A stretch of DNA of 64,000 nt from assembly GCA_037968475.1 (NCBI GenBank), contig JBBKVO010000018.1, positions 108,603-172,602 of the forward strand, written 5' to 3'. The notes beneath the pieces were generated by a model. The model saw nothing but the letters and a program-made list of their open reading frames with translations, was not told the origin of the DNA and searched no databases. The position numbers and the translations under genes are program-made. Origin of the DNA: Bacteroidia bacterium. Lineage in GTDB: Bacteria > Bacteroidota > Bacteroidia > UBA8524. This document shows, one piece after another, positions 5,577 to 50,467 of this stretch (positions within the stretch are counted from its first letter, which is position 1; each line of letters starts with the position of its first letter).

Positions 5577-6077
5577 CTACTCTTGCCTTGTCCAAACAAT
5601 CTCACCGCTTAGGCATTCTTCTTTTTTTAGTGAGGTCTCTATTTGAGTACGTAAGCTTTCCGTTGATTTTACGGCTTCAGTACCTCCATCAAGCAAACCA
5701 ACATCGTAGGTATACATTTTTCCATTATTGTACTCGTAGCAATACAAATAGTAGCTATTATCGTCTTTTGGAAGAGAGTATATAAACGTTTTGCCACTAA
5801 TTTTAGTTACCCACCCTATAAATTCATTGGTTTCAAGGCTATACATTGTGCCCGTATTTTCTACTTTAATAGAATAGCTATTGGCAGAAGCTTTTGTTAT
5901 AGTTACTTTACCAAATTCAGGGTCTTCCTCGTTGTTCGTCCATGTACCCAAAAGGTTAGGGTCGATTTTTTCAGTGCCCGTGTTTCCGGCAGGGTAGTCT
6001 AAACCAATTGGGCAACCGCTAAGTAATACCATTACCGGCAGCAGCATTATTATTACAAATTTTGTAGTTTTCATCAT
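5577..6077 (-). CDS. Hypothetical lipoprotein
   Basis: Signal peptide with a lipobox-like LLSGC motif. No recognisable domain. Confidence 0.5.
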   Translation of the reverse strand: MMKTTKFVIIMLLPVMVLLSGCPIGLDYPAGNTGTEKIDPNLLGTWTNNEEDPEFGKVTITKASANSYSIKVENTGTMYSLETNEFIGWVTKISGKTFIYSLPKDDNSYYLYCYEYNNGKMYTYDVGLLDGGTEAVKSTESLRTQIETSLKKEECLSGEIVWTRQE

Positions 6078-6160
6078 TTAGGTTAATACACCAAATATCA
6101 TCATAAGTAAATTATTTTTTCTACGATTTTTTTTAACCCGCTCGCACCTATTTTTGCACC

Positions 6161-6865
6161 ATGCAAAAACGCACTAAAATACCTGTATGGATAAAAACAG
6201 TTTGGGGCTATACAAAACCAATTGCTGTTTTATTGATGCAACTGTTTTTGCTGTTTACCATTGTGTTTAGGGTAGTGCCTATCCCTTTATCACCATTGAT
6301 GGTATTGCGCCCTTCGCCCATAAAAAAAGATTGGGTGGCGTATGAAAAAATTAATAAAAATGTGCTGGTAGCAGCTCTGACTGCCGAAGACCCACACTTT
6401 GCCACCCATTGGGGGTTTGAGTTTGAGGCAATGGTAGATGCTGTTGAGGATAATATTGAAGGAAAAAAGAAACACCTACGCGGTGGTAGTACTATTAGCC
6501 AGCAAACAGCAAAAAATGTATTTCTTTTTCCGGGTAATGGTATTACACGTTATATACGCAAGGGGTTTGAGTTTCCGCTAACGGCTTGGCTTGAACTAAT
6601 GTGGAACAAACGCCGCATATTGGAGGTATACTTAAATATTATTGAAATGGGCGATGGTATTTATGGTATTGAGGCCGCTGCACAGCATTATTATAAAACC
6701 ACAGCAGCAAAACTAACGGCGCAGCAAGCTGCTTCAATTGTGGTTTGTTTTCCTAATCCTTTGAAAAGAAATCCATTGAAGCTAACGCCCCGTTTGCAAA
6801 AAAGGCGAAACAAATATGTGCGCTGGATGGCAGGCTATAAGTTGCCCGCCAACCTGCAACCCTAA
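6161..6865 (+). CDS. mtgA: Monofunctional biosynthetic peptidoglycan transglycosylase (GT51)
   Basis: 234 aa with an N-terminal TM helix and GT51 motifs ([26 protein letters not shown]). Confidence 0.85.
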
Positions 6866-7731
6866 AACATTTGCTCCATTATTTTTATAAGGTAGCGGCC
6901 ATAGCCACTTTTCATAAGCGGATGGGCTAGTTTTTCAAGCTGCTCTTTATTAATAAAGCCCATACGGTAAGCTATTTCTTCAGGGCAACCGATTTTTAGG
7001 CCTTGCCTTTCTTCAATCACCTGTACAAATGTGCCTGCTTGTATTAGCGAGTCTATAGTACCTGTATCTAACCATGCCGTTCCCCTGTTCATCAGGGCTA
7101 CTTTTAGGCGATTGCGTTGCAGGTATATTTTATTAATATCGGTTATTTCCAACTCGCCGCGTGGCGATGGTTTTAGGCTGCGGGCATAGGCCACCACATC
7201 GTTATCGTAGTAGTAAAGGCCGGGTACTGCATAGTTTGATTTTGGTTTTTCGGGTTTCTCTTCAATGCTTAGCACGTTCATATCCTCGTCAAAATCAACC
7301 ACACCGTAACGCTCAGGGTCGTTTACGTGGTAGGCGAAAACTATACCGCCTTCAGGGTCGTTACAGGCCTGCAAAGTGCGCGAAAAGCCCGAACCATAAA
7401 ATATATTATCACCCAAAATAAGGGCTACTTTTTCTTTACCGATAAAATCAGCACCTATGGTAAATGCTTGCGCAAGTCCTTTTGGTTCTGGTTGTTCAGC
7501 ATAGCTAAACTCGCAGCCAAACTGCTTACCATCGCCCAAAAGTTGACGAAAAAGGGGTAAATCGTGCGGGGTAGATATAATAAGTATTTCGCGTATGCCC
7601 GATAGCATTAGGGTGCTGAGGGGATAGTATATCATGGGTTTATCGTACACAGGCATTAGCTGTTTGCTAACGGCAATTGTAAGTGGATGCAAGCGTGTAC
7701 CCGAACCTCCTGCTAATATTATACCTTTCAT
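6862..7731 (-). CDS. rfbA: Glucose-1-phosphate thymidylyltransferase
   Basis: [19 protein letters not shown]-terminus, 289 aa. Canonical RmlA. Confidence 0.9.
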
Positions 7732-7996
7732 TCTACAATTATACTAAGTTTGGGCTGAATTGCCTTACAGTATGGCGTTACTAATTTTTTGTTTGCCAGT
7801 ATGAGCGTCCGCTTGTGCTAAACAATAGGGTAGCATCCGCTACCTGCTTAAATGTTTCATCCACAATGCCTGCCGCACTCCTTCAACTTCATCCAGAAAA
7901 AACCACTTGTTATCCCGTCATGCCGACGCAGGTCGGCATCTCGTTGCCCAATAAAGTTTACACAGATTGAGATCCTGAAACAAGTTCAGGATGACA

Positions 7997-8030
7997 GCCA
8001 CACAAGGTGACAATGGTTAGTTTAGGCATT
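7997..8030. repeat. Short dispersed repeat CAGGATGACAG.CACAAGG.ACAATGGTTAG (copy 1)
   Basis: Near-identical to 39999-40032. A partial match (ATGACAGCCGCGCA) lies at 9425-9438. Confidence 0.5.
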
Positions 8031-8052
8031 GCTTAAAACTGTAAACCAAAAA

Positions 8053-8105
8053 CTTAAAACTGTTTACAAATCCTCAGCACGCTCGACCAACTTAAGGTCG
8101 GGTTG
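8053..8105 (-). pseudogene. Displaced, diverged copy of the rmuC 3' end (last ~11 codons plus stop)
   Basis: The minus-strand translation of 8062-8097 reads ...PDLKLVERAEDL*, the same as the true RmuC C-terminus (DPKLVERAEDL*) at 9464-9499. The DNA is about 85% identical to 9453-9510. Confidence 0.65.
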
Positions 8106-8185
8106 TTTTAAATTTTATAATTTAAGTTATCATTATTTTGTAGAGATAATATAAATTATTAAATTGCTTCAAACTATCGTAAATT

Positions 8186-8956
8186 ATGTGGAAAGGATTT
8201 AATTTAAAATTGGAAGGCTTTGAAAATTTAGATCAGTACGAAACTATTGGCAAAAGTCTCTATACCGCAAATAAAAATCAAGCTATGAAAGGGCTTGAGG
8301 AATATACTACTAAAAATGGTCGAATTAATGGTACCGAAATGAAAAAAGATTGGTTTCCTGAAATTATGGCCGATATTTTTATTTCGCATTCACATAGTGA
8401 TGAAAAAATTGCTGTTGCTTTGTCTGGGTATCTTCATGATAATTTTGGTTTAAATACATTTATCGACTCTTGTGTATGGGGGTACGCAAACGACCTACTG
8501 TTTGAAATTGATAAAAAAAACTGTTCTTCTGGTGATAATCTTTTCAGCTATGAGGCCAGAAATTATTCAACTAGTAATGTTCACATGATGTTAGCTACAG
8601 CAATATCTAAAATGATGGATAAAACAGAGTGTGTATTCTTTTTGAATACACAAAACTCAATTACCACTAACGTAGCTCTGATCTCTCAAACTGAATCACC
8701 ATGGATTTATTTCGAATTAGCGATGACGAAAATCCTTAGAGCTAATATTCCAAATAGATTAAAAGAGGAAACTAGAACCATGTCTGAATCTCTTAATAAG
8801 AAATCTACATTTGTTTATGAGTTAGATTTGAGTGACTTGATAGAAATTAGTTTTACTCACTTATTAAGATGGGAAAGGGAAAATAAGCTTACAGCTGCAT
8901 CAGCACTCGATAAACTATATGAAATAACGAATAGTAATGGCATTATCAGAGGATAA
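8186..8956 (+). CDS. TIR-domain protein (candidate NADase-type immune TIR)
   Basis: Residues 63-98 are DIFISHSHSDEKIAVALSGYLHDNFGLNTFIDS, the betaA-alphaA-betaB TIR signature. Residues 139-178 are AISKMMDKTECVFFLNTQNSITT...SPWIYFEL, matching the vvvlS.ny..S.WC..EL block with a candidate catalytic Glu at residue 177. The gene is AT-rich. Confidence 0.6.
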   Translation: MWKGFNLKLEGFENLDQYETIGKSLYTANKNQAMKGLEEYTTKNGRINGTEMKKDWFPEIMADIFISHSHSDEKIAVALSGYLHDNFGLNTFIDSCVWGYANDLLFEIDKKNCSSGDNLFSYEARNYSTSNVHMMLATAISKMMDKTECVFFLNTQNSITTNVALISQTESPWIYFELAMTKILRANIPNRLKEETRTMSESLNKKSTFVYELDLSDLIEISFTHLLRWERENKLTAASALDKLYEITNSNGIIRG

Positions 8957-9359
8957 AATCAAACATTTAGAGTTTATACAGAACATAATTACTCGTATGA
9001 ACTCTAATTCATTTCAGATTAAAGGCTTGGCAGTCACCCTAACAACTGGTTTATTGGCAGTTTATGGTGCAAATCCAAAAGTGATTTTTATATTCATAGG
9101 GATACTACCCAATATACTTTTTTGGCTCTTGGATACTTATTACCTACAAATGGAGTGGAAATTTAGAGGGCTGTATAATGATATTATAAACCCAGATAAT
9201 ACTATACCTTCATTTAGTATGGATATTATCAAATACAAAGGAAAAGAGTACTCGTTTGTTAATGTACTATGCTCTAAATCAATACTTCCTTTGTACCTAT
9301 CAATTATTGTTATTTTACTTTTGCTTGGTATTGGAATTCAATATAATTCCTGTGCTTAA
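8937..9359 (+). CDS. Small membrane protein with three predicted TM helices; candidate effector partner of the TIR protein
   Basis: 140 aa. It overlaps the upstream gene by 20 nt, which suggests translational coupling. Hydrophobic segments lie at about residues 28-47, 50-70 and 116-136. Confidence 0.5.
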   Translation: MALSEDKIKHLEFIQNIITRMNSNSFQIKGLAVTLTTGLLAVYGANPKVIFIFIGILPNILFWLLDTYYLQMEWKFRGLYNDIINPDNTIPSFSMDIIKYKGKEYSFVNVLCSKSILPLYLSIIVILLLLGIGIQYNSCA

Positions 9360-9463
9360 AAGATACTTGAATTATACTTTCTGATAAAAATCCCCTACCC
9401 GCCCATGTTTCGACTTCGCTCAACATGACAGCCGCGCAGCCATTAGTTATTACTTAAAACTGT

Positions 9464-10804
9464 TTACAAATCTTCTGCACGCTCTACCAACTTAGGGTCT
9501 AGCTGTTTAGATACTTTTGCTCCCAACTCGCGCAAAGTTTCGGCACGGCGTATAAGGTTTCCGCGCCCTTCGTAAAGCTTTTTCATACTGTCTTCATAAG
9601 CTCCCTGTGCCGATTTCATTTTCTTGCCCAAATCAATAAGGTCTTCGGTAAAGTTTACAAATTTATCGTACAAATCGCCGCCTTGCCTTGCTATCTCCAG
9701 CACGTTACGGTTTTGGTATTCTTGCTTCCAAATATTGGCTATGGTGCGCAGGGTGGCCAGCAGGGTACTACTGGTTACTATTACTATATTTTGATCGAAG
9801 GCATCATTAAATATTTCCGAATCGCTTTGCACTGCAACCGCAAAGGCCGATTCTATGGGGATAAACAACAATACAAAATCAGGCGTATCAATCTCGTACA
9901 ATTGGTGGTAGCGTTTTTCGCCCAGTTGTTTTATATGCTCGCGAACCGATTTTATATGCGCCTTTAGCCACGTTTGTTGCTCTTCTTGCGTATTGGCCGA
10001 TGAGTACCTTTCATACGCCGTTAGCGATACTTTTGAATCGACAATTATATTTTTATTGTCGGGCAGTTTTATAATAACGTCGGGCTGTTGGCGGCGACCT
10101 TCATCATTCACAAAACTTTCTTGCACACTATACTCTTGCCCCTTGGTAAGTCCGCTTTTCTCCAATACTTTCTCTAAAATCAGCTCACCCCAATTACCCT
10201 GTGTTTTGCTTTCGCCTTTCAGGGCTTTGGTTAGTCGGTTAGCATCCTCACGCATCCCTTGGTTTAGTTCGGTAAGTCCACGTATTTGCTCGGCTAGTCG
10301 GCTTTGCTCCTTGCTATTTTCAAGGTGGGTATCTTCCACCTTTTTCTTAAACTCATCCATCTTCTCCTTCAACGGGTTTAGCACTATATCTAAACTATCA
10401 CGGTTTTGACGAACAAATTTTTCGCTTTTCTCTTCAAATATTCTATTGGCAAGGTTTTCAAACTCTTTAGCTAAACGCTGCTGTAAGGCTTCAACCTCTT
10501 GTTTCTGTTCAGTAAGTTTTTGTTCAAGGTTTTGCAACTGGTTAGCCAGTCGGCTATTATCAGCCGTTAGGCTTAGGCTTTGTTTCTGGGCATCTTCAAA
10601 CTGGGTTTTAGCATCAAATAAAGTAGCCTGTAATGAGTTGGCTTTCTCTTCCAATCCTGCCTTCTCGGCAGTAATACGCGATATTTCTTGCCCACGCATA
10701 TCAAAATCGGTACGGGGCACCATTTGGGCTATTTTGTTTTTACCCAAAAGCCAGCCAATAAAAGCTCCTGCTACTAATCCCACCACTACAAACAGTATTT
10801 CCAT
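9464..10804 (-). CDS. rmuC: DNA recombination protein RmuC
   Basis: Coiled-coil N-terminal half and a conserved RmuC C-terminal nuclease-like domain (YHQLYEIDTPDFVLLFIPIESAF...). The ORF track extends to 10903. The start at MEILFVVVGLV (10804) is more likely, giving an N-terminal TM helix. Confidence 0.9.
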   Translation of the reverse strand: MEILFVVVGLVAGAFIGWLLGKNKIAQMVPRTDFDMRGQEISRITAEKAGLEEKANSLQATLFDAKTQFEDAQKQSLSLTADNSRLANQLQNLEQKLTEQKQEVEALQQRLAKEFENLANRIFEEKSEKFVRQNRDSLDIVLNPLKEKMDEFKKKVEDTHLENSKEQSRLAEQIRGLTELNQGMREDANRLTKALKGESKTQGNWGELILEKVLEKSGLTKGQEYSVQESFVNDEGRRQQPDVIIKLPDNKNIIVDSKVSLTAYERYSSANTQEEQQTWLKAHIKSVREHIKQLGEKRYHQLYEIDTPDFVLLFIPIESAFAVAVQSDSEIFNDAFDQNIVIVTSSTLLATLRTIANIWKQEYQNRNVLEIARQGGDLYDKFVNFTEDLIDLGKKMKSAQGAYEDSMKKLYEGRGNLIRRAETLRELGAKVSKQLDPKLVERAEDL

Positions 10805-10877
10805 ATTTTTGCCGCTTAATTTTTTATTACACCAATGCTTACCAAAGGGCAATATTCGTACTAATTTTGGACTTTTT

Positions 10878-12242
10878 ATGCTGAAAACACCCACAAAACC
10901 CACTCGCGCTATTACCCTAAAAGGTAGACTGTTGGCTCGTTTTGTGTGGTTACTACTGCTTTGCGTGCATTTTTTTAAGTGGAAAAAATGGCAATACCCG
11001 CCTGCGGGTTTTCACGATGACCCTTTGCATTTTAAACTTAAAGACATTCTGTTTTTTGCATATAAATACTATTTCCGCACGCTAGAAAAGGCCGAAAAAA
11101 ACTCTGGTATCGAAGATTATTTTAAAACTCAAAACTTTTCTTTTCCCGAAAAACCTTTGGGTGCAACTACCATTACACTGAGTGCAGGTGGCGATTTGAT
11201 GCCCTACGAATGGATAAACCCCAACAGCACAAAACACTTGTGGGACGAGGTGGGCGACTTTTTTTTTAACAGTGATATTGTTTTTGCCAACCTTGAAACA
11301 CCAATGGTTTTAAGCGAAAAACCTTCACTAACACCAGAAGTTATGCTTAACGATATGTATTTTAACGGTTCGGAAGAGTTGTACTCCATTTTTAGTGGAA
11401 ACAGAAAATACAAGGGCTACGATATTCTAAGCACTGCCAACAACCACATGTTGGATATGGGTGAAAAGGGACTAAAAACCAATTTAGATTTTTTAAAAGG
11501 AAAAGCCCTTGCCGTAGGTTCAGCATACGATAAAGAGGGACAAGATGATTTTCCTATTGTTGAACGAGACGGAATACAAGTAGCATTTTTGGCCTATACA
11601 TATAGCCTTAATAAACTACAACCTATTGAGGGCAAAGAATACCTTACCAACTACTTGCCTCTAAACCAAGACGGTTGCGATATTAGCTTGATTATTCATC
11701 ATGCAAAGTTGGCAAAACAGCGCGGGGCTGATATGGTAGTATGCTCGCTACACTGTGGTTGTGCCTACCAAGCCTATCCTGCCAATCATACGGTTGATTT
11801 GTACCATCGTGTTTTTGATGAGGCGGGCGTTGATGTAATTTTAGGGCACCACCCACACAACCCGCAACCTATGGAGCAATACCCTTTTACTGATCCTTTT
11901 ACAGGTAAAGATAAGCTGGGCTTTGCCATATACTCGCTAGGCGATTTTGTAGCGTACGATTTAAGTATTTTTTGCCGTATGCCTTTGCTTTTAAAGTTTG
12001 AAATAACAAAAACTTACGAGCATACTTTTGTCTCGGGCTTACAAATTTTACCCGCCTACCTTGCCGGTAAAAAAACTGCACAGGGTATGGATGTGCGCTT
12101 ACTAAACCTAGATAAAATTGCCCAAGAAAACTATACACATCCGTTTTTAAACAAGGCATTAAAAAAAGAAGCTGGCACTCTTTACAGCTTTTTACAAAAC
12201 CATATTATACGGCCACAACACGAAATATGGCTGAAACATTAA
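10878..12242 (+). CDS. CapA/PgsA-family protein (poly-gamma-glutamate synthesis-type metallophosphatase)
   Basis: The LSAGGDLMPYEW...DIVFANLETP motif matches the PGA_cap family. The ORF-track N-terminus (10446-10877) overlaps rmuC on the opposite strand and is judged spurious. The start was chosen at MLKTPTKP. Confidence 0.75.
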   Translation: MLKTPTKPTRAITLKGRLLARFVWLLLLCVHFFKWKKWQYPPAGFHDDPLHFKLKDILFFAYKYYFRTLEKAEKNSGIEDYFKTQNFSFPEKPLGATTITLSAGGDLMPYEWINPNSTKHLWDEVGDFFFNSDIVFANLETPMVLSEKPSLTPEVMLNDMYFNGSEELYSIFSGNRKYKGYDILSTANNHMLDMGEKGLKTNLDFLKGKALAVGSAYDKEGQDDFPIVERDGIQVAFLAYTYSLNKLQPIEGKEYLTNYLPLNQDGCDISLIIHHAKLAKQRGADMVVCSLHCGCAYQAYPANHTVDLYHRVFDEAGVDVILGHHPHNPQPMEQYPFTDPFTGKDKLGFAIYSLGDFVAYDLSIFCRMPLLLKFEITKTYEHTFVSGLQILPAYLAGKKTAQGMDVRLLNLDKIAQENYTHPFLNKALKKEAGTLYSFLQNHIIRPQHEIWLKH

Positions 12243-12326
12243 AATTTAACTGTATAATTCTTTATTTTGCGACTCGTTTTTAAAACTAAATAACATACAG
12301 CCAATTTTATAATACACCACACAGTT

Positions 12327-12887
12327 ATGGAAGATGTAAAAACTATACTTGACGAAACTAAAATGAGCATGGATAAATGCATACAACACACTGAGGTTGA
12401 GTTTGCAAATATTAGGGCAGGAAAAGCCAGCCCGAATATGCTTGATGGTATAAGTATAGACTACTACGGTGCAATGACACCCTTAGCACAAGCCGCCAAT
12501 ATTACCACCCCCGATGCACGCACTTTAGTGATACAACCTTGGGATAAAGGGTTGATTAGTGCTGTAGAGAAAGCAATTATAGACTCTAACCTTGGCCTAA
12601 ACCCACAAAACGATGGTATAGTGGTGCGCCTAAATATACCACCACTTACTGAAGACAGACGTAAAGGGTTGGTGAAAACCGTGAAAGCTGAAGGCGAAAA
12701 TGCCAAGGTAACTATACGTAACATACGCAAAGAAGGAAACGAGCAAATTAAAAAAGCACAAAAAGACGGACTTGCCGAAGATTTGGCAAAAGACGGTGAA
12801 GCAAAAGTGCAAATACTTACTGACCAGTACATTAAGAAAATTGATGAACTGCTAGTACTAAAAGAAAAAGAAATAATGACCGTTTAA
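12327..12887 (+). CDS. frr: Ribosome recycling factor
   Basis: 186 aa, collinear with RRF throughout (VRAGKASPNMLDGI..., TIRNIRKE...). Confidence 0.95.
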   Translation: MEDVKTILDETKMSMDKCIQHTEVEFANIRAGKASPNMLDGISIDYYGAMTPLAQAANITTPDARTLVIQPWDKGLISAVEKAIIDSNLGLNPQNDGIVVRLNIPPLTEDRRKGLVKTVKAEGENAKVTIRNIRKEGNEQIKKAQKDGLAEDLAKDGEAKVQILTDQYIKKIDELLVLKEKEIMTV

Positions 12888-12891
12888 GCCT

Positions 12892-14871
12892 TTGCAAAAA
12901 GCATTTAAAAAAATAGCATCTTTTAAAACGCTGAAATATGTAGTTATTACAATTTCAGCGTTTTTAGTTTTAGGCATTGTAGCATACTTTGCTCTGCGTA
13001 ACTATGTTTTGCAAAAAGCCTTGCAAAAAGTAAAAGGCAAGGTTGAAAATAGTACTCATCTAAGTTTTGCTGTGGGTAATGCCCAATTTAAAGGGTTAAA
13101 TACCATACAGCTTACCCAAATAAGTCTTGTGCCACAGGGTAAAGACACACTTTTTACTACCGATAGCGTACAAGTATCTATAAAACTATTACCTATTGTT
13201 TTTGGTAAAATACGTCTTAGTAAACTGCAAGTGGCCAATACCCATGTGTATTTGCGTAAAGACAGTTTGCAAACTAATTTTAGAGGACTTCTAAAACCTC
13301 GTAAAAAGACGGAAAAGAAAGAAAATGCAGACAGGGATGTATCAAAAAGCACCTTTGAAGCTATAAAAACTCTTTTACGTTACTTGCCCGATGAGGTAGA
13401 TGTAAAAAATGCTCGCCTTAGCTTAAAGTATAATGATAGCCTACGCTACATCACCCTAAAAAAACTGGATTGGGACAATAGTAAATTTGCAGCACTAATT
13501 GAACCCCAAAAAGAATTTGGACAAAGCGATTGGATAGCAGAAGGTTATTTTGATAAACACGAAATTAAAGGCGAGCTAAACCTATCAAGTTCTGAGGGAA
13601 TAGATATTTACCTTGCTTCGCTATTCAACTCAGGTTTAGGATTTAAAAAACTACACCTGCAAATAGATCAACTGGATTATAAAAACAAAACCCTTGTGTT
13701 TGATGCCAAGGGAGATATAGACAGTTTGCGTATATATAACGAACGCCTTGCATTGGATACGGTACGCATAGCCAAAACCGGTGGCAATCTTGCCCTGCAA
13801 ATAAACCGCAACTTTGTAGTTTTAGATTCATCATCAACCTTTAGTATTAATGATATTCGCCTTAGTGCTTTTGCCCAATACCCCTTGGGAAAAGAAAAGC
13901 AATATGCCCTAGCACTTAATATGCCCAGCACCAATGCGCAAAACTTTTTCAACTCGCTGCCACAAGGCATGTTTAGAAAGTTCGATGGTATAGAGGTAAA
14001 AGGTAATTTATCGTACAGGCTTAATTGTGCTATGGATGGTGCCATGCCCGATAGCTTGCAGTTTACATCTGAACTTAAAAAAGAAGATTTTGAAATTGTA
14101 AAATATGGTGCTGAAAACTTTGCCCGTATTAACGGTGCTTTCACCCAAACGGTGTTTGAAGGTGGAAAACCCATACGCAGTTTTGTGGTAGGAGAAGACA
14201 ATCCATACTTTACCCATAGCGAGGCAGTGAGCCCGTTTTTTAAAAATGCCTTGCTGATTAATGAAGATCCTTCATTTTTTTACCATCACGGTTTTATACC
14301 GCAATCGTTTAGAGATGCTATTGTAGCGGTGTATAAAGCAGGGTTTAAGTTTGTACGTGGCGGTAGCACCATAAGTATGCAATTGGTTAAAAATGTGTAC
14401 TTAGAACGCCGCAAAACCATATCGCGCAAAGCCGAAGAAGCCCTTATTGTTTGGCTGATAGAAAACAACCGAGTGAGTAGCAAAGAACGTATGTTTGAGG
14501 TATACGTTAATATTATTGAGCTTGCACCAGGTGTGTATGGTATTGGCGAGGGTGCACAATTTTATTTTAACAAACGTCCTGCCGATTTAACCCTTGCCGA
14601 AGGCATATACCTATCAAACATTATCCCACGTCCAAAAGCCTTTAAATACGGGTTTGAAAAAGACGGTAGTATGAAACATTGGCTGCAAGAAAAAGCCAAC
14701 CTTGTAGTGCGCCGTATGGTGCAGCGCGAGTGGTTACCCGCTACGGACACTATTGGTTTTAGCCCGCAAGTAGTACTAAAAGGAGCTGCAAAAAACTTTA
14801 TCATTCCTGATAGTGTGGCCATAGAACCTATGGATACTTTGCCTGACACATTAAAGATTTTTGAAGAGTAA
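12892..14871 (+). CDS. Membrane protein with a C-terminal GT51 transglycosylase domain
   Basis: N-terminal TM helix and a ~430 aa domain of unknown function. The C-terminal ~200 aa carry GT51 motifs (EDPSFFYHHGF, RGGSTISMQLVKNVYL). The gene starts 4 nt after frr. Confidence 0.7.
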   Translation: MQKAFKKIASFKTLKYVVITISAFLVLGIVAYFALRNYVLQKALQKVKGKVENSTHLSFAVGNAQFKGLNTIQLTQISLVPQGKDTLFTTDSVQVSIKLLPIVFGKIRLSKLQVANTHVYLRKDSLQTNFRGLLKPRKKTEKKENADRDVSKSTFEAIKTLLRYLPDEVDVKNARLSLKYNDSLRYITLKKLDWDNSKFAALIEPQKEFGQSDWIAEGYFDKHEIKGELNLSSSEGIDIYLASLFNSGLGFKKLHLQIDQLDYKNKTLVFDAKGDIDSLRIYNERLALDTVRIAKTGGNLALQINRNFVVLDSSSTFSINDIRLSAFAQYPLGKEKQYALALNMPSTNAQNFFNSLPQGMFRKFDGIEVKGNLSYRLNCAMDGAMPDSLQFTSELKKEDFEIVKYGAENFARINGAFTQTVFEGGKPIRSFVVGEDNPYFTHSEAVSPFFKNALLINEDPSFFYHHGFIPQSFRDAIVAVYKAGFKFVRGGSTISMQLVKNVYLERRKTISRKAEEALIVWLIENNRVSSKERMFEVYVNIIELAPGVYGIGEGAQFYFNKRPADLTLAEGIYLSNIIPRPKAFKYGFEKDGSMKHWLQEKANLVVRRMVQREWLPATDTIGFSPQVVLKGAAKNFIIPDSVAIEPMDTLPDTLKIFEE

Positions 14872-14924
14872 TTCTTTATTTATTAGTAATTATATTCTTC
14901 TAAAAATCGACATTTGCCCTCGGT

Positions 14925-16016
14925 TTGCAAAACATGAAAATATATCTGCTATTGGCATTGCTATGCTTTGGTATACCGTGTATTGCTCAAAAAATAGTTG
15001 TTGATTCCTCTTTACTTGATGCCCCTCCTTCCCCACCATTAACTTACGACACTAATTATATACACCGATTTGGCGATGTAATAGCTATTGAGCCATGGAT
15101 ATCCGCACCAACATTTTCATTCAGACTTGAACCAAAAACCGATAGTTTAGCCGTAAAAGGCAACGATTACCAACCGCACTTACGAGATGTAGTTGGATTT
15201 GATATTAGCTATCGTGCCTTTACCGTCTCTATTGGTTTTAAAGGCCGTGTTGTGGAAGAGGATAATGAGGTATATGGGAAAACCAACTATTCAATTATTA
15301 AAATTAGGCTAAATAGTAAACCCTTTGTGTACGAGTTTTACCACAATACTTTTAATGGCTTTGCCGATTATAATACATCATCGTACGATAGTAGCCATCC
15401 ACAATCCACACCTTTAATAAAACGAGGTGATATACGTGTGCAATACACCAAACTAAAAGCCATTTATATTTTCAGCAGAAAGAAGTTTTCGTATGGTGGT
15501 GCATATAGTTTTACCGAGCGACAAAAAAAGACTAGAGCCACAGCATTGGCCGTTGCCCATGTATACCGCATGAGTACAAGTGCCGATTCGACTTTTTTTA
15601 ACTACGGACAACAAGGTTTGTTTAGCAAATACGATAGTCTTAAACATTTGCGAGTGTATTCAATAGGATTAGGGCCCGGTTTTGCTGCTACTTTTGTAAA
15701 AAAGAAATGGTTTTTTTCTATCGGGGCATATATAATGGGCGATTTGCAATACCACAGCTCACACAATACCCATAACGAGATTATTAGCCAAGGTTGGAGG
15801 GCTGCCCTATTTGGCGACGTTTTTGTTTCGGGAGGATATAATGGCAATACATTTTATGCGGGCTTTGTAGCTCGGGGAGACCGTAATTTTGTATCACTAC
15901 CCAATGTAAATGCCTCAACTACTTTTTACAATACCGTATTAAGCATAGGTTTTAGGTTCAATCCACCTAAAATTATTTCTAAATTGTACGATGCCAGTCC
16001 ACTAAGATATTTATAA
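14925..16016 (+). CDS. Hypothetical secreted protein
   Basis: Signal peptide. No recognisable domain. Confidence 0.4.
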   Translation: MQNMKIYLLLALLCFGIPCIAQKIVVDSSLLDAPPSPPLTYDTNYIHRFGDVIAIEPWISAPTFSFRLEPKTDSLAVKGNDYQPHLRDVVGFDISYRAFTVSIGFKGRVVEEDNEVYGKTNYSIIKIRLNSKPFVYEFYHNTFNGFADYNTSSYDSSHPQSTPLIKRGDIRVQYTKLKAIYIFSRKKFSYGGAYSFTERQKKTRATALAVAHVYRMSTSADSTFFNYGQQGLFSKYDSLKHLRVYSIGLGPGFAATFVKKKWFFSIGAYIMGDLQYHSSHNTHNEIISQGWRAALFGDVFVSGGYNGNTFYAGFVARGDRNFVSLPNVNASTTFYNTVLSIGFRFNPPKIISKLYDASPLRYL

Positions 16017-23897: not shown

Positions 23898-23946
23898 TAT
23901 TTCAATGATTTGTCAAATTTTAAAAATTTGACAAATCATTGAAATA
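23898..23946. repeat. Perfect ~23-bp-stem palindrome
   Basis: TATTTCAATGATTTGTCAAATTT-TA-AAATTTGACAAATCATTGAAATA. Confidence 0.7.
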
Positions 23947-23983: not shown

Positions 23984-24042
23984 GTCGTGAAGTTTTGAAT
24001 TTGACAAACTTTTAAAGTTTGTCAAATTCAAAACTTTACGAC
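23984..24042. repeat. Near-perfect ~28-bp-stem palindrome
   Basis: GTCGTGAAGTTTTGAATTTGACAAACTT-TTAA-AAGTTTGTCAAATTCAAAACTTTACGAC has one mismatch. It abuts the sulfatase stop codon. Confidence 0.7.
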
Positions 24043-39924: not shown

Positions 39925-39998
39925 CTATATAGCTGTGTTTGTTTCATCCCCCTACCCCCTTCTCTCATGCGCTTTATCCTTCTACTCCGCTCAGGATG

Positions 39999-40032
39999 AC
40001 AGTGCACAAGGGGAACAATGGTTAGGATGGAT
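39999..40032. repeat. Short dispersed repeat (copy 2)
   Basis: CAGGATGACAGTGCACAAGGGGAACAATGGTTAG compared with 7997-8030 CAGGATGACAGCCACACAAGGTGACAATGGTTAG. Confidence 0.5.
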
Positions 40033-44629: not shown

Positions 44630-46390
44630 ATGAAAAAACTACTACTAACAGCAGTTGTGCTGGTTGCAGGTATTGCAGCGCATGCACAGTATTTCCAAAA
44701 TCTTTACGGCGTTCCCGTAAATGAAACTCTAACATCAGGTATCAATACTACAGCTTCGGGAAACGGCTATTTTATGGCTAGTTCTAACAGCGGCTTTGCT
44801 TTTGGTACTCCTTCAATTTCAGCTGCATTTGCAGACGTTACAGGTAATATACCCGGTGGCCCTTACTTTACTAACGAGTACATGGTAGTAAGCAATGCAG
44901 GTAATCCATTACAAACCCAAGACCCACAGGTATTTGAGTTTGACAACGGTTCTGGCTTTGGTATTATAGGCAGGTATACCGACCCTACAATGGCTAGCCC
45001 AAACACTGGAATTTATTTTCTTCAATTAGACCCTTCGGGAAATGTACTAAATTCTTTTAACTATACTGTTAACCCTAATGGCAGTAGCTTTTGGGATGTT
45101 ATAAAAGTGAGTGCTATTGCCGAATCGGCCACTGGTAAAGAAATATACGTTACAGGCTGGTTACAACCCAATTTTGCACAAGTAAACAGCTTTGTATTAA
45201 AAATTGACGCTGCCTCTGGAGCAATAATTTGGGGTTATGTATACGATGTTATCAACCCTAGCTTCTCGTCAAAAGATTTGTTTAACGACATTGTAGAAAG
45301 CCCTTATTCTAGTGAAGTTATTGTTGTGGGTCAAACTTATGATGGCACTACAACTTCTGATGGCTTGTTTATGCGTATTAATTCAAATACAGGAGCTGCT
45401 TTTCCTATCGTAAACCTTCACGGAACAGCAACCTCATGGGATGCTTTTAATGCTATAACCGTAGCTAACAGCCCTGCCGCTGGTGGCCCTGGTTTTGCAA
45501 TTGGTGGTACAAGCGATGCTAACGGTACTAATGATTTTTGGTTTACTTTAGTTGATCCTACAGGTACTTTTATCACTTCAACCCTACACGATTATAGTAT
45601 AAACCCAGGCGCCAACGATATTTGCGAAGATATAATTGAGCGCAAAAACACATTTGGCAAATATGAATACTACATGGCTGGCAGCACCTTTAAAGGAGCA
45701 TTTGGCAAGTACGATGTATTAGTAATAAAAACTGATGCTAAGGGTAATGGTGTTGCCAATGGAGAATTTACTTATGGTAGCGCAGGTAACGATTTTGGTA
45801 AAAGCATTGACCAATATAACGGTACAGGTAATGATGGCCTAAGCATATTTGGCACTTATGATGATAATGTTATAGGCGGTTCTGATATGTACTTGGTAAG
45901 AGCTTATTTTAATGGCGCATCAGGTTGTAACGAAAAATTTAGCACACCAACCCCAAAAAGTGGCCCTAAACTATACTTACGCTATGATGTAAAAGATATA
46001 GCCAAGTTTAAAGACAACAAATTCTTATGGAAACAAACTACTGCCAAAGACAAAAATCTTTGCTTTGCTTGGACAATAACAGGTGGCAGTAACGCCCGTG
46101 TAGCTCCAGCCGAACCTAGCGGAGATAAAGAAGCAAAAGTCAGCCCTAACCCAATTGCACAAGGCACACAATATGCCGCCCTTGAAGTTGAAGTAGAAAA
46201 CCCGACCACAGCACAAGTGGCTATTTATGATATGCTTGGCCGTACCTACTATGCTCAAACCTTTACATTAGTAAAAGGTAAAAACAACATAGTGCTTGAT
46301 ATTAACAACGTTAATATGGCACAAGGTATGTATACTGTTAAAGTACAAGGTGAAAACCTAAACCAAAACATTATATGGTTAGTAAAATAG
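44630..46390 (+). CDS. T9SS type-A C-terminal-domain secreted protein, paralog 1 of 4
   Basis: Signal peptide ending ...AHAQYFQNLYG. Conserved C-terminal block GGSNARVAPAEP.GDKEAKVSPNPIAQG... plus a sorting-domain tail. Confidence 0.7.
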   Translation: MKKLLLTAVVLVAGIAAHAQYFQNLYGVPVNETLTSGINTTASGNGYFMASSNSGFAFGTPSISAAFADVTGNIPGGPYFTNEYMVVSNAGNPLQTQDPQVFEFDNGSGFGIIGRYTDPTMASPNTGIYFLQLDPSGNVLNSFNYTVNPNGSSFWDVIKVSAIAESATGKEIYVTGWLQPNFAQVNSFVLKIDAASGAIIWGYVYDVINPSFSSKDLFNDIVESPYSSEVIVVGQTYDGTTTSDGLFMRINSNTGAAFPIVNLHGTATSWDAFNAITVANSPAAGGPGFAIGGTSDANGTNDFWFTLVDPTGTFITSTLHDYSINPGANDICEDIIERKNTFGKYEYYMAGSTFKGAFGKYDVLVIKTDAKGNGVANGEFTYGSAGNDFGKSIDQYNGTGNDGLSIFGTYDDNVIGGSDMYLVRAYFNGASGCNEKFSTPTPKSGPKLYLRYDVKDIAKFKDNKFLWKQTTAKDKNLCFAWTITGGSNARVAPAEPSGDKEAKVSPNPIAQGTQYAALEVEVENPTTAQVAIYDMLGRTYYAQTFTLVKGKNNIVLDINNVNMAQGMYTVKVQGENLNQNIIWLVK

Positions 46391-46416
46391 TTTAGATAAA
46401 ACACTAAATTAATTTA

Positions 46417-46447
46417 AAGCTACCCCTTTTGGGGTAGCTTTTTTTTT
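46417..46447 (+). terminator. Rho-independent terminator (module copy 1)
   Basis: AAAGCTACCCC-TTTT-GGGGTAGCTTT followed by a T-run. Confidence 0.7.
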
Positions 46448-46466
46448 GTAAAACCAAAAAGGGTAG

Positions 46467-46517
46467 TTCACAAAGTCAAAAGGGTAGTTCACAAATTCAA
46501 AATGGTATTTCACAAAG
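46467..46517 (+). promoter_or_regulatory. Three TTCACAAA(G/T) direct repeats phased at 21 bp
   Basis: Repeats start at 46467, 46488 and 46508/9. They are upstream of the conserved CAAATTGTATACACA promoter-proximal block. Confidence 0.5.
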
Positions 46518-46582
46518 TGAACATGTTTTAACAAATAGTATTTGTGCAAATTGTATACACAAATTTTAAAACACTATCTATT

Positions 46583-48340
46583 ATGAAAAACATTATTCTA
46601 ATTGTCTTTTTACTAGCCGGTTTCACTAGCAAGGCTCAGTATTTCCAACATCTTTACGGTCAAGACCCCGCTATTGGCAGCTTAATAGGAAATGGCATGA
46701 ACACCAAAGCAACAGGGCCCGGACATTTAATAGGGGGTTTACATATAAAAGATTTATTAATACCCCCCGGTCCGTATGATTTTTACAACTTTGCTCTGCA
46801 TGTTATTAGAACCGATGCTGACGGCAGGTTTGCTTCTCCAAACGATTTTAATAATACTTATAGGCTAACTAACTCAGCTGGTGCTGCTATCCGTTTCTCA
46901 GCAGGTTCTGTTGTCGAGTTTAGTGATGGCAGTGGCTATGGTGCTATAGGTACTTATTTTTACGAGCCTCTGCCTCGCTCGTTTGGTATTGCCTACATCC
47001 GCTTAGATGTACTCGGTAATGTAATTAGTTCACAAGGCTACGCTTTACCTTATAGGGGCGGTAGCTATATTGATTTGAGGGGAATGAAAGAATCAGTATC
47101 AAACCCCGGCGATCTATTTGCTACAGGCACATCTGCAAATTCAAATGGTGATGAGTATATGTGGGCACTTAAAATTGACCAAACCGGCACTCTTTTATGG
47201 GGGAATTTATATGATTTTGGATTAGGTATTATTGAAGATCCAGCTGATTTAATTGAAAGCCCTTATGCCTCAGAACTTATTGTTGTAGGAGGGGTGAAAT
47301 CATCGTTAAGAGCCTTATGGATGGTTTTAGACCCTAACACAGGCAGTGTGATTTCAGCCGATGAGATGTCGTCTTTTTACGGTACAACTGAGATTTTAAA
47401 CTCCATTGATGTAAGTGATGACCCTTTAATGCCCGGTTTTATACTTTCAGGTGTAGTGGATGAAAAGGTATGGGTAGTAAAAACCGACCAAATGGGCACT
47501 TACCAATGGGGAGGAATATATCAACCCTCATTTAGTCAAGTAGAATATATGTATGGTTTTGATGCCGTTGGTCGCCTAAAAGAAGATGGCTCTGATGGCT
47601 ATAATTATGAATACTTTATTACTGGAGCGATATATGTTACATCTGCACCAAACCCTGATGCTTTTGTTTTTAAACTAGACCGTTGGGGCAACCCCGTCAA
47701 CCCAAATGCATTATTTATTTATAACTATGGTATTGAAGAAACAGGATTGGATGTAGATGTAAATATAAGTGGCAGTGGCGATGGTGTTACTATGTATGGT
47801 ATTGGTGAAGATAACAATATCCCTACCAAAGAAATATATGTTGTTAAGGCCTATTTTAATGGTGTTTCTGGTTGCAATGAGCGGTTTGAAGATTTACAAC
47901 AAAATGTAGGAGAACTTTTTCCTGTTAATTCGTTAGGCGTTGCATTAACTCCACTAAGCACAGAAATTCTTACATTATACAATATCGAGAATGAATTAGA
48001 TAAAGAGATTTGCTATAACACTACAATACCCAGTGGTAGCAATGCACGCGTAGCTCCTGCTGAACCTAAAGGTGATAAAGAAGCAAAAATTAGCCCTAAC
48101 CCTATTGCACAAGGCGTTCAATATGCTAATATAGACGTTGATATTGAACAACCTACAACTGCACAAGTATCGGTTTACGATATGCTAGGCCGTACCTACT
48201 ACTCGCAAACATTTACTTTGGTAAAAGGCAAAAACAACCTAGTGCTTGATATTAGTAATATTAACATGGCACAAGGTATGTATACTGTGAAAATACAAGG
48301 TGATAACCTAAACCAAAATATAGCATTACTTGTAAAATAA
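46583..48340 (+). CDS. T9SS type-A C-terminal-domain secreted protein, paralog 2 (start chosen at MKNIILIVF)
   Basis: The ORF-track start at 46544 lies inside the conserved promoter block. A signal peptide begins at 46583. The C-terminal ~100 aa are ~90% identical to the other paralogs. Confidence 0.7.
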   Translation: MKNIILIVFLLAGFTSKAQYFQHLYGQDPAIGSLIGNGMNTKATGPGHLIGGLHIKDLLIPPGPYDFYNFALHVIRTDADGRFASPNDFNNTYRLTNSAGAAIRFSAGSVVEFSDGSGYGAIGTYFYEPLPRSFGIAYIRLDVLGNVISSQGYALPYRGGSYIDLRGMKESVSNPGDLFATGTSANSNGDEYMWALKIDQTGTLLWGNLYDFGLGIIEDPADLIESPYASELIVVGGVKSSLRALWMVLDPNTGSVISADEMSSFYGTTEILNSIDVSDDPLMPGFILSGVVDEKVWVVKTDQMGTYQWGGIYQPSFSQVEYMYGFDAVGRLKEDGSDGYNYEYFITGAIYVTSAPNPDAFVFKLDRWGNPVNPNALFIYNYGIEETGLDVDVNISGSGDGVTMYGIGEDNNIPTKEIYVVKAYFNGVSGCNERFEDLQQNVGELFPVNSLGVALTPLSTEILTLYNIENELDKEICYNTTIPSGSNARVAPAEPKGDKEAKISPNPIAQGVQYANIDVDIEQPTTAQVSVYDMLGRTYYSQTFTLVKGKNNLVLDISNINMAQGMYTVKIQGDNLNQNIALLVK

Positions 48341-48372
48341 AATAGTATTTATAATCATCATATCTGTTTTAT

Positions 48373-48406
48373 AAAAGCTACCTCAAAAGGGTAGCTTTTT
48401 TTTCAC
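48373..48406 (+). terminator. Rho-independent terminator (module copy 2)
   Basis: AAAGCTACC-TCAAAA-GGGTAGCTTT followed by a T-run. Confidence 0.7.
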
Positions 48407-48473
48407 AAACCCAAAATAGTGTTTCACAAAACAGAAACTGCATTTCACAAAGTCAAATGCCCATTTCACAAAG
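48401..48473 (+). promoter_or_regulatory. Four TTTCACAAA(C/A/G) direct repeats at exactly 21-bp spacing
   Basis: Repeats start at 48401, 48422, 48443 and 48464. Confidence 0.55.
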
Positions 48474-48537
48474 TAATCACACTGTTGCAGTTAATATTCT
48501 ACAAATTGTATGTACTAATATTAAAATACTATCTACA

Positions 48538-50292
48538 ATGAAAAAAATCTTTTTAATCACCTTAGCCTTTGCTTCTATTGGTGCAAGTGCTCAATTCTTT
48601 CAACACAACTATGGCACTAAAGACAGTGAGAATGCAAGCAATGGGTTAAACACCACTGCAACAGGGTTGGGACATTTTATTGTCTCAAGTACTTTTAATT
48701 CTCCAACAAATGAAATTTTAGCGGTTAATACCGATATTAATGGAAATGTTGCCGCCTTTAATAATTTATATACTTTAACTCATTCATCTGGAGTATTGCT
48801 AGATATTGACAATACTTTACCTATCGAATTTAGTAACGGAAGCGGTTATGGTATTTTTGGCAGATTTCACGACCCAGGTCTTAGCATACCTACAGGTATT
48901 TTTTACCTTGAAATTGATCCCGCAGGAAACATTTTAAATGTTACTGAATACAATCCTATTAGCACTGTCGGCACAAATTATTATGTAGTAGAAGTTGCTG
49001 ATGTAACCGAATCATTAGGTGGTGGTTTCTTTTATATTACGGGGACTGTTGACCCCAGTATTATGGGTAACTTTTGGATTTTTGTTATAAAAATTGACCA
49101 AGCAGGAAATATAATATGGTCTATTGTAGACGACCTAGTAAACTCAACATCGGTATCACGTGATTGGGCAAAAGGGATTGTCGAAAGTCCGTATTCTCCT
49201 TCGGGTACTCCTGAATTGGTGGTTGTAGGACAAACCTATGATGGAGGAGGTTCAGCAGATGCATTTCTCGTAAGGCTTGATGCCAATAGCGGAACATCAC
49301 TAGCACCTGTAAATTTATATGGCACTACTACCAGTAATGAGATTTTTAATTCTATTAAGATAGCAAACAACACTATATCAGGTGCGCCCGGCTTTATTAT
49401 TGGCGGTAGTAGTGATATAAATAGTGGTGGTGCAAATCGTGATTTTTGGCTACTTCAAACAGATGACCAAGGTAATCCATTTTGGAGCTACACTTATGAT
49501 TATAATGGTAGTTCAGGCAATAACGATTACAGTACAGATGTAATTGAAAGGCTTAATACTGGGGGATTATATGAATACTATCTTGGCGGGCATACCAATA
49601 ATGGAAACCTTGGTGGTGCCGATTTGGTAGTTATAAAAACTGATAATTTAGGTAATGCCGTTGGTCAATTTACTTATGGTAGCCCTTCTGATGATGTTGG
49701 CACTTATCTTGACTATTACGACCTCGTGGGGCCTGATGGCTTAAGCGTTTTTGGTACATACAATGGAGGTGGTATAGGTTTAATGGATACATACCATGTA
49801 AAAGCTTATTTTAATGGTTTATCTGGTTGTAATGAAAATCTTGGTATGACCCATAATTTAATAGGCCCCGGCCTATTTATGAACTTACAGGATAGATTAA
49901 AAACAACATTTAAAAATGTTTCTATGACATCCGCCCTATCTAGTGCGAAAGATGCTAACCTTTGTTTCAACTTCTCTATACCCGGTGGTAGCAATGCACG
50001 CGTTGCTCCTGCTGAACCCAAAGGAGATAAAGAAGCAAAAATTAGCCCTAACCCAATTGCTCAAGGTGTACAATATGCCAATGTAGAAATTGATATTGAA
50101 AAACCTACAACCGCCCAAGTATCGGTGTACGATATGCTTGGTCGTAGCTACTATGCACAAACCTTTACTTTGGTAAAAGGCAAAAACAACCTAGTGCTTG
50201 ATATTAGTAATATTAACATGGCACAAGGTATGTATACTGTGAAAATACAAGGTGAAAACCTTAACCAAAACATAGCATTACTTGTGAAATAG
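48538..50292 (+). CDS. T9SS type-A C-terminal-domain secreted protein, paralog 3 (start at MKKIFLITLAF)
   Basis: The signal peptide starts at 48538. The ORF-track 5' extension covers the promoter region. Confidence 0.7.
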   Translation: MKKIFLITLAFASIGASAQFFQHNYGTKDSENASNGLNTTATGLGHFIVSSTFNSPTNEILAVNTDINGNVAAFNNLYTLTHSSGVLLDIDNTLPIEFSNGSGYGIFGRFHDPGLSIPTGIFYLEIDPAGNILNVTEYNPISTVGTNYYVVEVADVTESLGGGFFYITGTVDPSIMGNFWIFVIKIDQAGNIIWSIVDDLVNSTSVSRDWAKGIVESPYSPSGTPELVVVGQTYDGGGSADAFLVRLDANSGTSLAPVNLYGTTTSNEIFNSIKIANNTISGAPGFIIGGSSDINSGGANRDFWLLQTDDQGNPFWSYTYDYNGSSGNNDYSTDVIERLNTGGLYEYYLGGHTNNGNLGGADLVVIKTDNLGNAVGQFTYGSPSDDVGTYLDYYDLVGPDGLSVFGTYNGGGIGLMDTYHVKAYFNGLSGCNENLGMTHNLIGPGLFMNLQDRLKTTFKNVSMTSALSSAKDANLCFNFSIPGGSNARVAPAEPKGDKEAKISPNPIAQGVQYANVEIDIEKPTTAQVSVYDMLGRSYYAQTFTLVKGKNNLVLDISNINMAQGMYTVKIQGENLNQNIALLVK

Positions 50293-50324
50293 TATTTGTG
50301 CTGATAAATATTCATCACTTTATA

Positions 50325-50350
50325 AAAGCTACCTCAAAAGGGTAGCTTTT
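50325..50350 (+). terminator. Rho-independent terminator (module copy 3)
   Basis: AAAAGCTACC-TCAAAA-GGGTAGCTTTT. Confidence 0.65.
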
Positions 50351-50351
50351 A

Positions 50352-50408
50352 TTTTACAAACCCAAAACAGTATTTCACAAAACAGAAAGCTTATTTCACA
50401 AAGTGAAG
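50352..50408 (+). promoter_or_regulatory. Three TTT(C/T)ACAAA repeats at 21-bp spacing
   Basis: Repeats start at 50352 (degenerate), 50373 and 50394. Confidence 0.5.
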
Positions 50409-50467
50409 TCTTTTTTCCCCATTCCATTTATTCAAATTGTATACACATATTTTAAAAAACTATCATT

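Follow-up and report, generated by a model that had tools for sequence, protein, structure and literature searches.

A probable type V Thoeris gene pair in a repeat-bounded cassette without a recombinase gene at the 3' end of rmuC in a Bacteroidia bacterium

In a 64,000 nt stretch of contig JBBKVO010000018.1 from an uncultured Bacteroidia bacterium (the whole of which is referred to here as the window), two small AT-rich genes lie just beyond the 3' end of the core gene rmuC and a displaced copy of that gene end lies on their far side. The locus raises the question of what these genes encode and how they came to be there. An earlier sequence-only reading of the same DNA had pointed to the displaced gene end flanking a two-gene insert, and our analysis bears this out. 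We conclude that the segment is probably a horizontally acquired cassette of ~1.4 kb that has no recombinase gene and carries a type V Thoeris defence system; the parts of this explanation differ in strength and are graded individually below.

A repeat search of the 64 kb window identified a gapless direct repeat of 57 nt, with 88% identity between its two copies (8052-8108 and 9452-9508) and a spacing of 1400 nt; the copies enclose 1343 nt (8109-9451). The right copy contains the rmuC stop codon (9464-9466), the last 14 codons of the gene and 12 nt downstream. Read on the minus strand, the functional rmuC end is KQLDPKLVERAEDL followed by the stop, and the left copy likewise reads KQPDLKLVERAEDL and a stop. 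The leading 21 nt of the copies are identical (ACTTAAAACTGTTTACAAATC) and span the stop codon, with all seven differences confined to the final 36 nt. Each half of the repeat has only two sites in the window, with no chance matches expected, and it is therefore not a common repetitive extragenic palindromic (REP) element; the possibility that the upstream copy is an independent element of that kind, which the sequence-only reading had itself raised, was not realised. That reading had described a repeat of ~100 bp with ~85% identity and indels, the right-hand segment of which held the stop codon and ~11 codons. The duplication and the inclusion of the stop codon stand, but extending the repeat to ~100 bp (7999-8051 against 9425-9451) requires a gap of ~28 nt and depends on a short patch, TCA..ATGACAGCC.C.CA, that is one member of a dispersed REP-like family; another lies at 39991-40025. 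The gene-end duplication was therefore counted as 57 nt.

The plus-strand order across the locus is rfbA, two REP-like hairpins, the left repeat, 77 nt of AT-rich DNA, an open reading frame (ORF) of 256 amino acids, an ORF of 140 amino acids, a REP-like element and the right repeat with rmuC (Table 1). The two ORFs, which are co-directional and overlap by 20 nt, are the only substantial ones between the repeats, as the sequence-only reading had stated. It was also correct in seeing no integrase; no recombinase or integrase gene was found in the cassette, which has two ORFs of at least 60 amino acids between the repeats, or among the Pfam-annotated neighbours within ~5 kb on either side. No 1343-nt stretch in the window has a GC content below that of 8109-9451, 0.313 (0.16th percentile; window mean 0.385), and the values for rmuC and rfbA are 0.429 and 0.439; GC content at third codon positions (GC3) is 0.27-0.28 in the cassette versus 0.34-0.43 in five neighbouring genes. 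Properly computed, the composition thus differs from that of the flanks in the direction claimed earlier, although the earlier figures of 28-30% against ~45% overstated a contrast of 31% against 43-44%. Rfam, sigma-70 promoter and tRNA scans gave nothing relevant, and the plasmid collection contained no close relative of the cassette DNA.

Relatives of the window were found by an RmuC scan of species-representative genomes, and one of them, the metagenome-assembled Bacteroidia chromosome OZ252261.1 (L001), provides an empty site. Its RmuC is 98% identical to that of the window; rmuC is followed by rfbA 327 nt away with a single copy of the repeat between them, and beyond rfbA L001 shares with the window genes for a transglycosylase, a lipoprotein and an aldo-keto reductase. 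BLASTN aligned L001 to positions 5588-8099 and 9456-15964 of the window, with the same 44 nt of L001 used twice; this overlap of the flanks means that L001 has one repeat copy and that exactly 1400 nt are missing from it. The outer side of the left copy runs on into native sequence common to L001. DNA identity is uniform at ~0.9 in both flanks, giving no sign of a divergent flank co-transferred with the cassette. The insertion at the rmuC 3' end proposed in the sequence-only reading is thus matched by a relative with a single repeat copy, and we consider it very likely that the segment is a foreign insertion at this position. Strain-level empty sites were also looked up by exact RmuC and RfbA sequence, which returned only the same sample.

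The cargo could be named from the homology of both proteins to validated systems and from their PADLOC matches (Table 1), whereas the sequence-only reading had found that it fitted no nameable system. Type V Thoeris was described in a preprint as a TIR (Toll/interleukin-1 receptor) domain protein, ThsB, with a three-helix membrane effector, ThsF (Yirmiya et al., bioRxiv 10.64898/2025.12.03.692087, Sorek laboratory, December 2025). Two Bacillus systems are validated there, those of B. thuringiensis DAR 81934 and Bacillus sp. 1NLA3E, and the type is reported to be enriched in Bacteroidota (10.64898/2025.12.03.692087). To link the window to these systems, the TIR sequences of Table S1 of the preprint were used, and were found exactly in locus L092 (B. 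cereus group) and locus L090 (Bacillus sp. 1NLA3E). The gene directly downstream of the validated TIR gene in these two loci encodes a membrane protein of 141 or 132 amino acids that is homologous to the small membrane protein of the window. The window ThsB is 44% identical to the validated ThsB of B. thuringiensis DAR 81934 (249 residues, full length), and the window ThsF is 36% and 40% identical to the two validated effectors over its full length (E=1.2e-28 and 5.4e-28).

Among 30 ThsB homologues the FxSHSH motif (FISHSH in the window; F65-S67-H68-S69-H70), W173 and E177 are invariant; on our reading of the S-P-W-I-Y-x-E motif, E177 probably occupies the position of the TIR catalytic glutamate. 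Nineteen residues of ThsF, including R20, K29, D66, E73 and R77, are invariant among 36 homologues, and its AlphaFold2 model (predicted local distance difference test score, pLDDT, 90) has helices at residues 5-45, 56-84 and 117-139. Adjacent thsB and thsF genes were also found in loci L081, L086, L090 and L092, and the pair occurs in Metabacillus, on plasmids of Terribacillus, Priestia, Klebsiella and Vibrio, and on haloarchaeal plasmids; ThsF homologues were present on eight viral contigs only. Other members of the ThsB family are part of larger loci with several TIR genes, either on a conjugative element or next to restriction-modification genes. Taken from homology, the assignment of the cargo to type V Thoeris (ThsB with ThsF) is one in which we have high confidence.

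By comparison with the described type, the window likewise has a two-gene operon for a TIR protein and a three-helix membrane effector of ~140 amino acids, both full-length homologues of the validated proteins. It differs in that its proteins are 36-44% identical to the validated ones, its host is an uncultured Bacteroidia bacterium and the system is known from sequence; a repeat-bounded, recombinase-less cassette context is not discussed in the available portion of the preprint. The window ThsF also matches the PADLOC candidate PDC-M50 (PADLOC-DB v2.0.0), which is itself a computational candidate only. Type II Thoeris (TM-Macro ThsA) and type VII Thoeris (SLATT ThsH) similarly combine a TIR signal producer with a membrane-disrupting effector, but the window effector has no Macro domain and belongs to another fold family, the 36 homologues giving one insignificant SLATT match (E=0.15). 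Pfam and NCBIfam contained no family for the small membrane protein, and profile searches against PDB sequences found no solved-structure relative of either ThsB or ThsF.

PF24838 (8xMP, a family of octameric membrane proteins) was matched weakly, but colinearly and over the full length, by the validated B. thuringiensis ThsF (L092 3001-3423; E=0.012) and by a Metabacillus indicus homologue (L086 5835-6251; E=0.23). Nothing relevant was found in the literature on 'PDC-M50' and '8xMP', including no paper naming PDC-M50. Plasmid tblastn with the B. thuringiensis ThsB led to this TIR type in type I or type II Thoeris loci that lack ThsF, and was of no help in identifying the effector.

What the present analysis establishes for function is that both proteins are homologous to those of a validated defence system, that the catalytic glutamate is conserved and that the genes form an operon; the action of the two proteins is carried over from the preprint. 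There, the ThsB of B. thuringiensis DAR 81934 is reported to produce 3' cyclic ADP-ribose (3'cADPR) upon infection, addition of 3'cADPR is toxic to cells with that system, and the model of ThsF is a homo-heptameric ring that has positive charge in the pockets between its protomers (10.64898/2025.12.03.692087). By analogy, the window ThsB would sense phage infection and convert NAD+ to a cyclic ADP-ribose signal, one of the cADPR isomers. ThsF, as a three-helix membrane protein, would form a ring-shaped oligomer whose positive pockets between subunits bind the signal; on binding it would breach the membrane, so that infection is aborted and phage replication stopped. As both tested members of this TIR cluster make 3'cADPR, this isomer is our best, though uncertain, guess for the signal of the window system.

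A second copy of the cassette bears directly on how it moves. The closest relative of the window ThsF, at 83% identity, is encoded on a 270 kb JGI (Joint Genome Institute) contig (L081), where the cassette sits between a SLFN_AlbA_2 gene and PNKP/RNA-ligase genes with no rmuC nearby. The GC content of this cassette is 0.26-0.32 against 0.42-0.49 in its flanks, and it is bounded by a different direct repeat of 96 nt (93% identical, with the first 56 nt identical). From the start of thsF through the REP-like element at the right end, the window and L081 share 0.8-0.93 DNA identity (similarity block 8964-9440 at 87%), whereas thsB DNA is only ~0.45-0.6 identical and the ThsB proteins are 45% identical. 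Set against window 8186-9359, L081 5220-6426 shows the cassette to be a mosaic. This divergence of thsB beside a thsF that is ~87% identical at the DNA level indicates that the sensor gene was exchanged and the effector kept. About 65 nt upstream of thsB, L081 carries a 36-nt fragment of an rmuC 3' end that is 89% identical to window 9495-9530 (E ~1e-6 against 84 loci). The fragment is in register with the left copy of the window and reaches further into rmuC than that copy does. The shared layout, running from the rmuC-end fragment through the promoter region of thsB and the two genes to the REP-like element, was therefore already present in the common ancestor of the two cassettes; the unit has since occupied at least two unrelated sites without a recombinase gene of its own. 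The promoter itself is presumed to lie in 8109-8185: a TA.ATTGC element is found ~25-30 nt before the ATG of thsB at both loci, and a sigma-70 scan gave nothing useful on the plus strand.

The anatomy of the window locus suggests a likeliest route of entry. The cassette would have entered 12 nt past the rmuC stop codon through a single crossover, the partners being the chromosomal rmuC 3' end and a copy of an rmuC 3' end that the cassette, in circular form, carried beside the thsB promoter. Such a crossover would leave rmuC intact and produce the 57-nt direct repeat with its identical 21 nt over the stop codon. The recombination function would come from outside the cassette, either as host homologous or RecA-independent recombination or as an integrase acting in trans. 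This single-crossover geometry is drawn from the restored gene end, the displaced copy on the far side of the insert, the identity of the copies across the stop codon and the diverged part facing the cassette, and on that anatomy we hold integration at a carried rmuC-end copy to be about evenly balanced between true and false.

Other histories would leave some of the same traces. The restored gene end, the displaced far copy and the identical core over the stop codon form the classic anatomy of an integrative island, and an element with a tyrosine integrase might have used the rmuC 3' end and then undergone internal deletions that left the Thoeris V genes and two att sites, a remnant resembling a cis-mobilizable element (CIME). 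An empty site exists, and other ThsB-family members are found in conjugative-element or defence-island contexts. L081, however, holds the same minimal unit with the same left rmuC scar and the same right REP-like element at a different site and between different repeats, so that the two-gene unit predates at least one relocation; a site-specific integrase, moreover, would not account for the different target. With no integrase within ~5 kb on either side as well, the second copy favours a unit moving as two genes over a decayed island, and we judge the latter unlikely. Least credible of all, and hardly tenable, is the proposal that the low-GC genes are native, with no insertion, and that the upstream repeat is nothing more than a REP-type element of a dispersed kind. 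There are REP-like hairpins on both sides and the ATGACAGCC patch does belong to a dispersed family, but the 57-nt repeat is limited to two places in the window and encodes the rmuC C-terminus in frame, L001 is without precisely these 1400 nt, and the GC content is the most extreme in the window.

The age of the insertion is a separate matter, in that the cassette may have been inserted with a perfect duplication before the window and L001 lineages split, L001 losing it later by recombination between the repeats while the left copy decayed neutrally. Both copies share derived states, GAGCGT (Glu-Arg), by comparison with Asp-Arg in L001 and in two further relatives, L002 and L003. The right copy agrees with L001 at six of the seven positions at which the left copy differs, and recombination between the repeats would recreate the single-copy site of L001 exactly. 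Against this, the GC and GC3 of the cassette are still far from those of host genes, the left-copy differences favour third codon positions and cluster at a distance from the 21-nt core, and only one relative is informative. We think this history improbable; it concerns timing only, and would need the same integration chemistry.

Several results weigh against a mobile type V Thoeris cassette as the explanation for this locus. Regarding the cargo, the Pfam TIR_2 match to ThsB is below threshold (E=0.021), and the ThsB model has a pLDDT of 71, Foldseek against the PDB listing TIR domains among its top hits at E-values of 0.23 or worse, none significant. PF10028 (DUF2270), the effector label used in the preprint, gave no hmmscan match with the window ThsF, its 36 homologues or the validated ThsFs; as it fails even with the validated proteins, the label is not reproducible with the Pfam copy used and is not a usable criterion. 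One of the validated type V systems gave no response to 3'cADPR (10.64898/2025.12.03.692087), which makes the signal molecule of the window system uncertain. Regarding movement, neither a circular form nor a trans-acting integrase was seen, and rmuC was found beside none of the other ThsF loci. A repeat of at least 60 bits spanning the cassette was detected at four of the 48 ThsF loci with enough flank (the window, L081, L130 with 264 nt and L167 with 41 nt) versus 1.6% of random anchors in control loci; flanking repeats are thus not a general property of ThsF cassettes and their enrichment is weak. Within the repeat itself, five of the seven copy differences are at third codon positions (p=0.045) and all seven are outside the first 21 nt (p=0.04), which hints weakly at a hybrid repeat or at a past of the left copy as coding DNA elsewhere. 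The derived states shared by the copies are equally compatible with a diverged donor copy and with an originally perfect duplication whose left copy has since decayed.

The repeats at the two other positive loci, L130 (3610-3873/5214-5477; 264 nt, 98%) and L167 (431-471/2478-2518; 41 nt, 98%), bracket unrelated cassettes in which thsF is followed by a short TIR gene. That of L130 resembles a hairpin-rich intergenic element of the miniature inverted-repeat transposable element (MITE) kind beside type I restriction-modification genes.

A mobile cassette without a recombinase can be compared with two groups of known elements. For a crossover made by host recombination there is a documented precedent in the E. 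coli H47 genomic island, which encodes no recombinase and is marked by extensive imperfect direct repeats. Neither RecA nor any of the 16 site-specific recombinases of K-12 is needed for this island to excise as a circle and integrate again (PMC5426353). As in this island and other 'unconventional circularizable structures', imperfect direct repeats flank the window cargo and no recombinase is encoded, and the same holds for L081 with its different repeat. Such structures have, however, been described in E. coli and Gram-positive cocci, with microcin or resistance genes rather than defence genes as their cargo, and the H47 circle is documented whereas for the window cassette there is the nucleotide sequence. 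With islands at gene 3' ends and integrase-less CIMEs, the window cassette shares direct repeats of which one is the restored gene end, a core over the stop codon and a relative with an empty site; it differs in having no integrase, in being only 1.4 kb long and in having a sister copy at another target with different repeats. Among the features that mark integrative elements, then, att-like direct repeats, a restored gene end and an empty attB are present, and an integrase or recombinase of its own is absent.

A bolder interpretation can be put forward tentatively, although we regard it as rather doubtful: that the Thoeris V unit is a self-homing defence module without a recombinase of its own. 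It would carry a decoy rmuC end and a REP-like hairpin, circularise via its flanking repeats, re-enter at matching sequences and gain new flank pieces in doing so (as in the nested scars of L081), with thsB swapped while the effector is kept.

The sequence-only reading had suggested a recombination hotspot. Among the closest relatives, L002 and L003 differ from L001 in that rmuC is convergent there with metH. Directly after the rmuC stop codon, L003 contains a low-GC insert of 1.08 kb (7342-8420) that is absent from its close relative L002 and codes for a type IV restriction enzyme of the Mrr type (Pfam Mrr_N and Mrr_cat; PADLOC mREase_IV 2e-83), making it a second and independent insertion of a defence gene at this spot. 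No direct repeat flanks this insert, which counts against the integration model. Counting the window and L001-L004, with L005 and L006 left out, two of the five closest genomes have a defence gene just downstream of rmuC; this lends the hotspot idea some support and, in a small sample, is suggestive of a small insertion hotspot downstream of rmuC.

Some features of the boundary sequences were observed alongside these comparisons. A 14-nt motif, TTAAAACTGTWWAC, occurs three times in the window (8033-8046, 8054-8067 and 9454-9467; 0.44 expected), in all cases at cassette boundaries. The occurrence at 8033-8046 is related to the 21-nt stretch, in the form TTAAAACTGTAAAC. The motif occurs once in L003 (8546-8559), at the far end of the variable region and adjoining the metH stop codon. 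At the native site the region around the stop codon is already present as a tandem near-repeat of ~21 nt, perhaps a scar left by earlier events. In the left repeat copy, four copy-specific substitutions form an 8-bp hairpin followed by TTGTTTT on the plus strand (8081-8103), upstream of thsB; this could be an insulating terminator under selection, or could be due to chance.

The locus offers a Bacteroidia example of what is probably type V Thoeris in its most stripped-down form, with two genes, one promoter region and one hairpin. The matched empty site and the relocated sister copy make it a testable case for the spread of very small defence modules without an integrase or transposase, and between the window and L081 the TIR sensor has been swapped (45% amino acid identity) with the effector remaining ~83% identical. 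Current views are not overturned: the cargo is of a known kind, and the relocation of a recombinase-less unit with a fragment of a host gene end is the moderately interesting part.

Table 1. Coordinates of the features at the rmuC 3' end (window positions; a dot marks features given without a strand).
Feature	Position	Strand	Remarks
rfbA	6862-7731	-	Pfam NTP_transferase 6e-76
Two native REP-like hairpins	7920-7939 and 7972-7992	.	Also found at the empty site of L001; outside the insert
Left direct-repeat copy	8052-8108	-	Displaced non-functional duplicate of the rmuC 3' end: last 14 codons, stop and 12 nt downstream
Identical 21-nt stretch ACTTAAAACTGTTTACAAATC	8052-8072	.	Second copy 9452-9472; candidate crossover/core region
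AT-rich region upstream of thsB, presumed promoter	8109-8185	+	Homologous to the region upstream of L081 thsB (alignment)
Probable thsB, predicted TIR-domain sensor and signal synthase, 256 aa	8186-8956	+	PADLOC ThsB PDLC00430, 3e-73, full length
Probable thsF, predicted 140-aa effector, three membrane helices	8937-9359	+	PADLOC PDC-M50A, 3e-42, full length; best of four PDC-M50A models, all of which matched
REP-like element, rmuC-proximal cassette end	9404-9451	.	Part of the insert; absent from L001; conserved at the same end in L081
Right direct-repeat copy	9452-9508	-	Functional rmuC 3' end; as L001 at 6 of 7 copy-differing positions
rmuC, core gene, 3' end is the insertion target	9464-10804	-	Pfam RmuC 1.5e-107; syntenic in L001-L004

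The REP-like element of the cassette has relatives at 7972-8020 and 39981-40025. We considered whether this REP type was foreign to the window genome, but with a native copy at 39981-40000 it is not diagnostic. A role for rmuC itself as a defence gene (Shield or reverse transcriptase-associated RmuC) was also considered and rejected; the protein matches the PADLOC RmuC model, but the gene is a syntenic core gene without partner genes, and no reverse transcriptase was found near it. An independent Logan assembly of the same sample (SRR28403175) has an rmuC-thsF-thsB contig ending at ~7969 and an rfbA contig starting at ~7943. The break (7943-7969) falls between the two native REP-like hairpins and could reflect repeat-induced branching or strain heterogeneity.

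Elsewhere in the window, two near-perfect AT-rich palindromes (23898-23946 and 23984-24042), with arms of 24 nt (100%) and 29 nt (97%), a 1-nt spacer and a common TTTGTCAAAT core, lie between pckA and sulfatase genes of convergent orientation and may serve as terminators in both directions or as sites of protein binding. Four tandem paralogous genes (44630-52234) encode proteins of 586-611 amino acids with a period of ~1950 nt and 66-79% DNA identity in places. The two of these paralogues that were scanned gave a weak match to Por_Secre_tail, the C-terminal sorting domain of type IX secretion, at ~26-27 bits, which is at or just below the Pfam cut-off of 27 bits.

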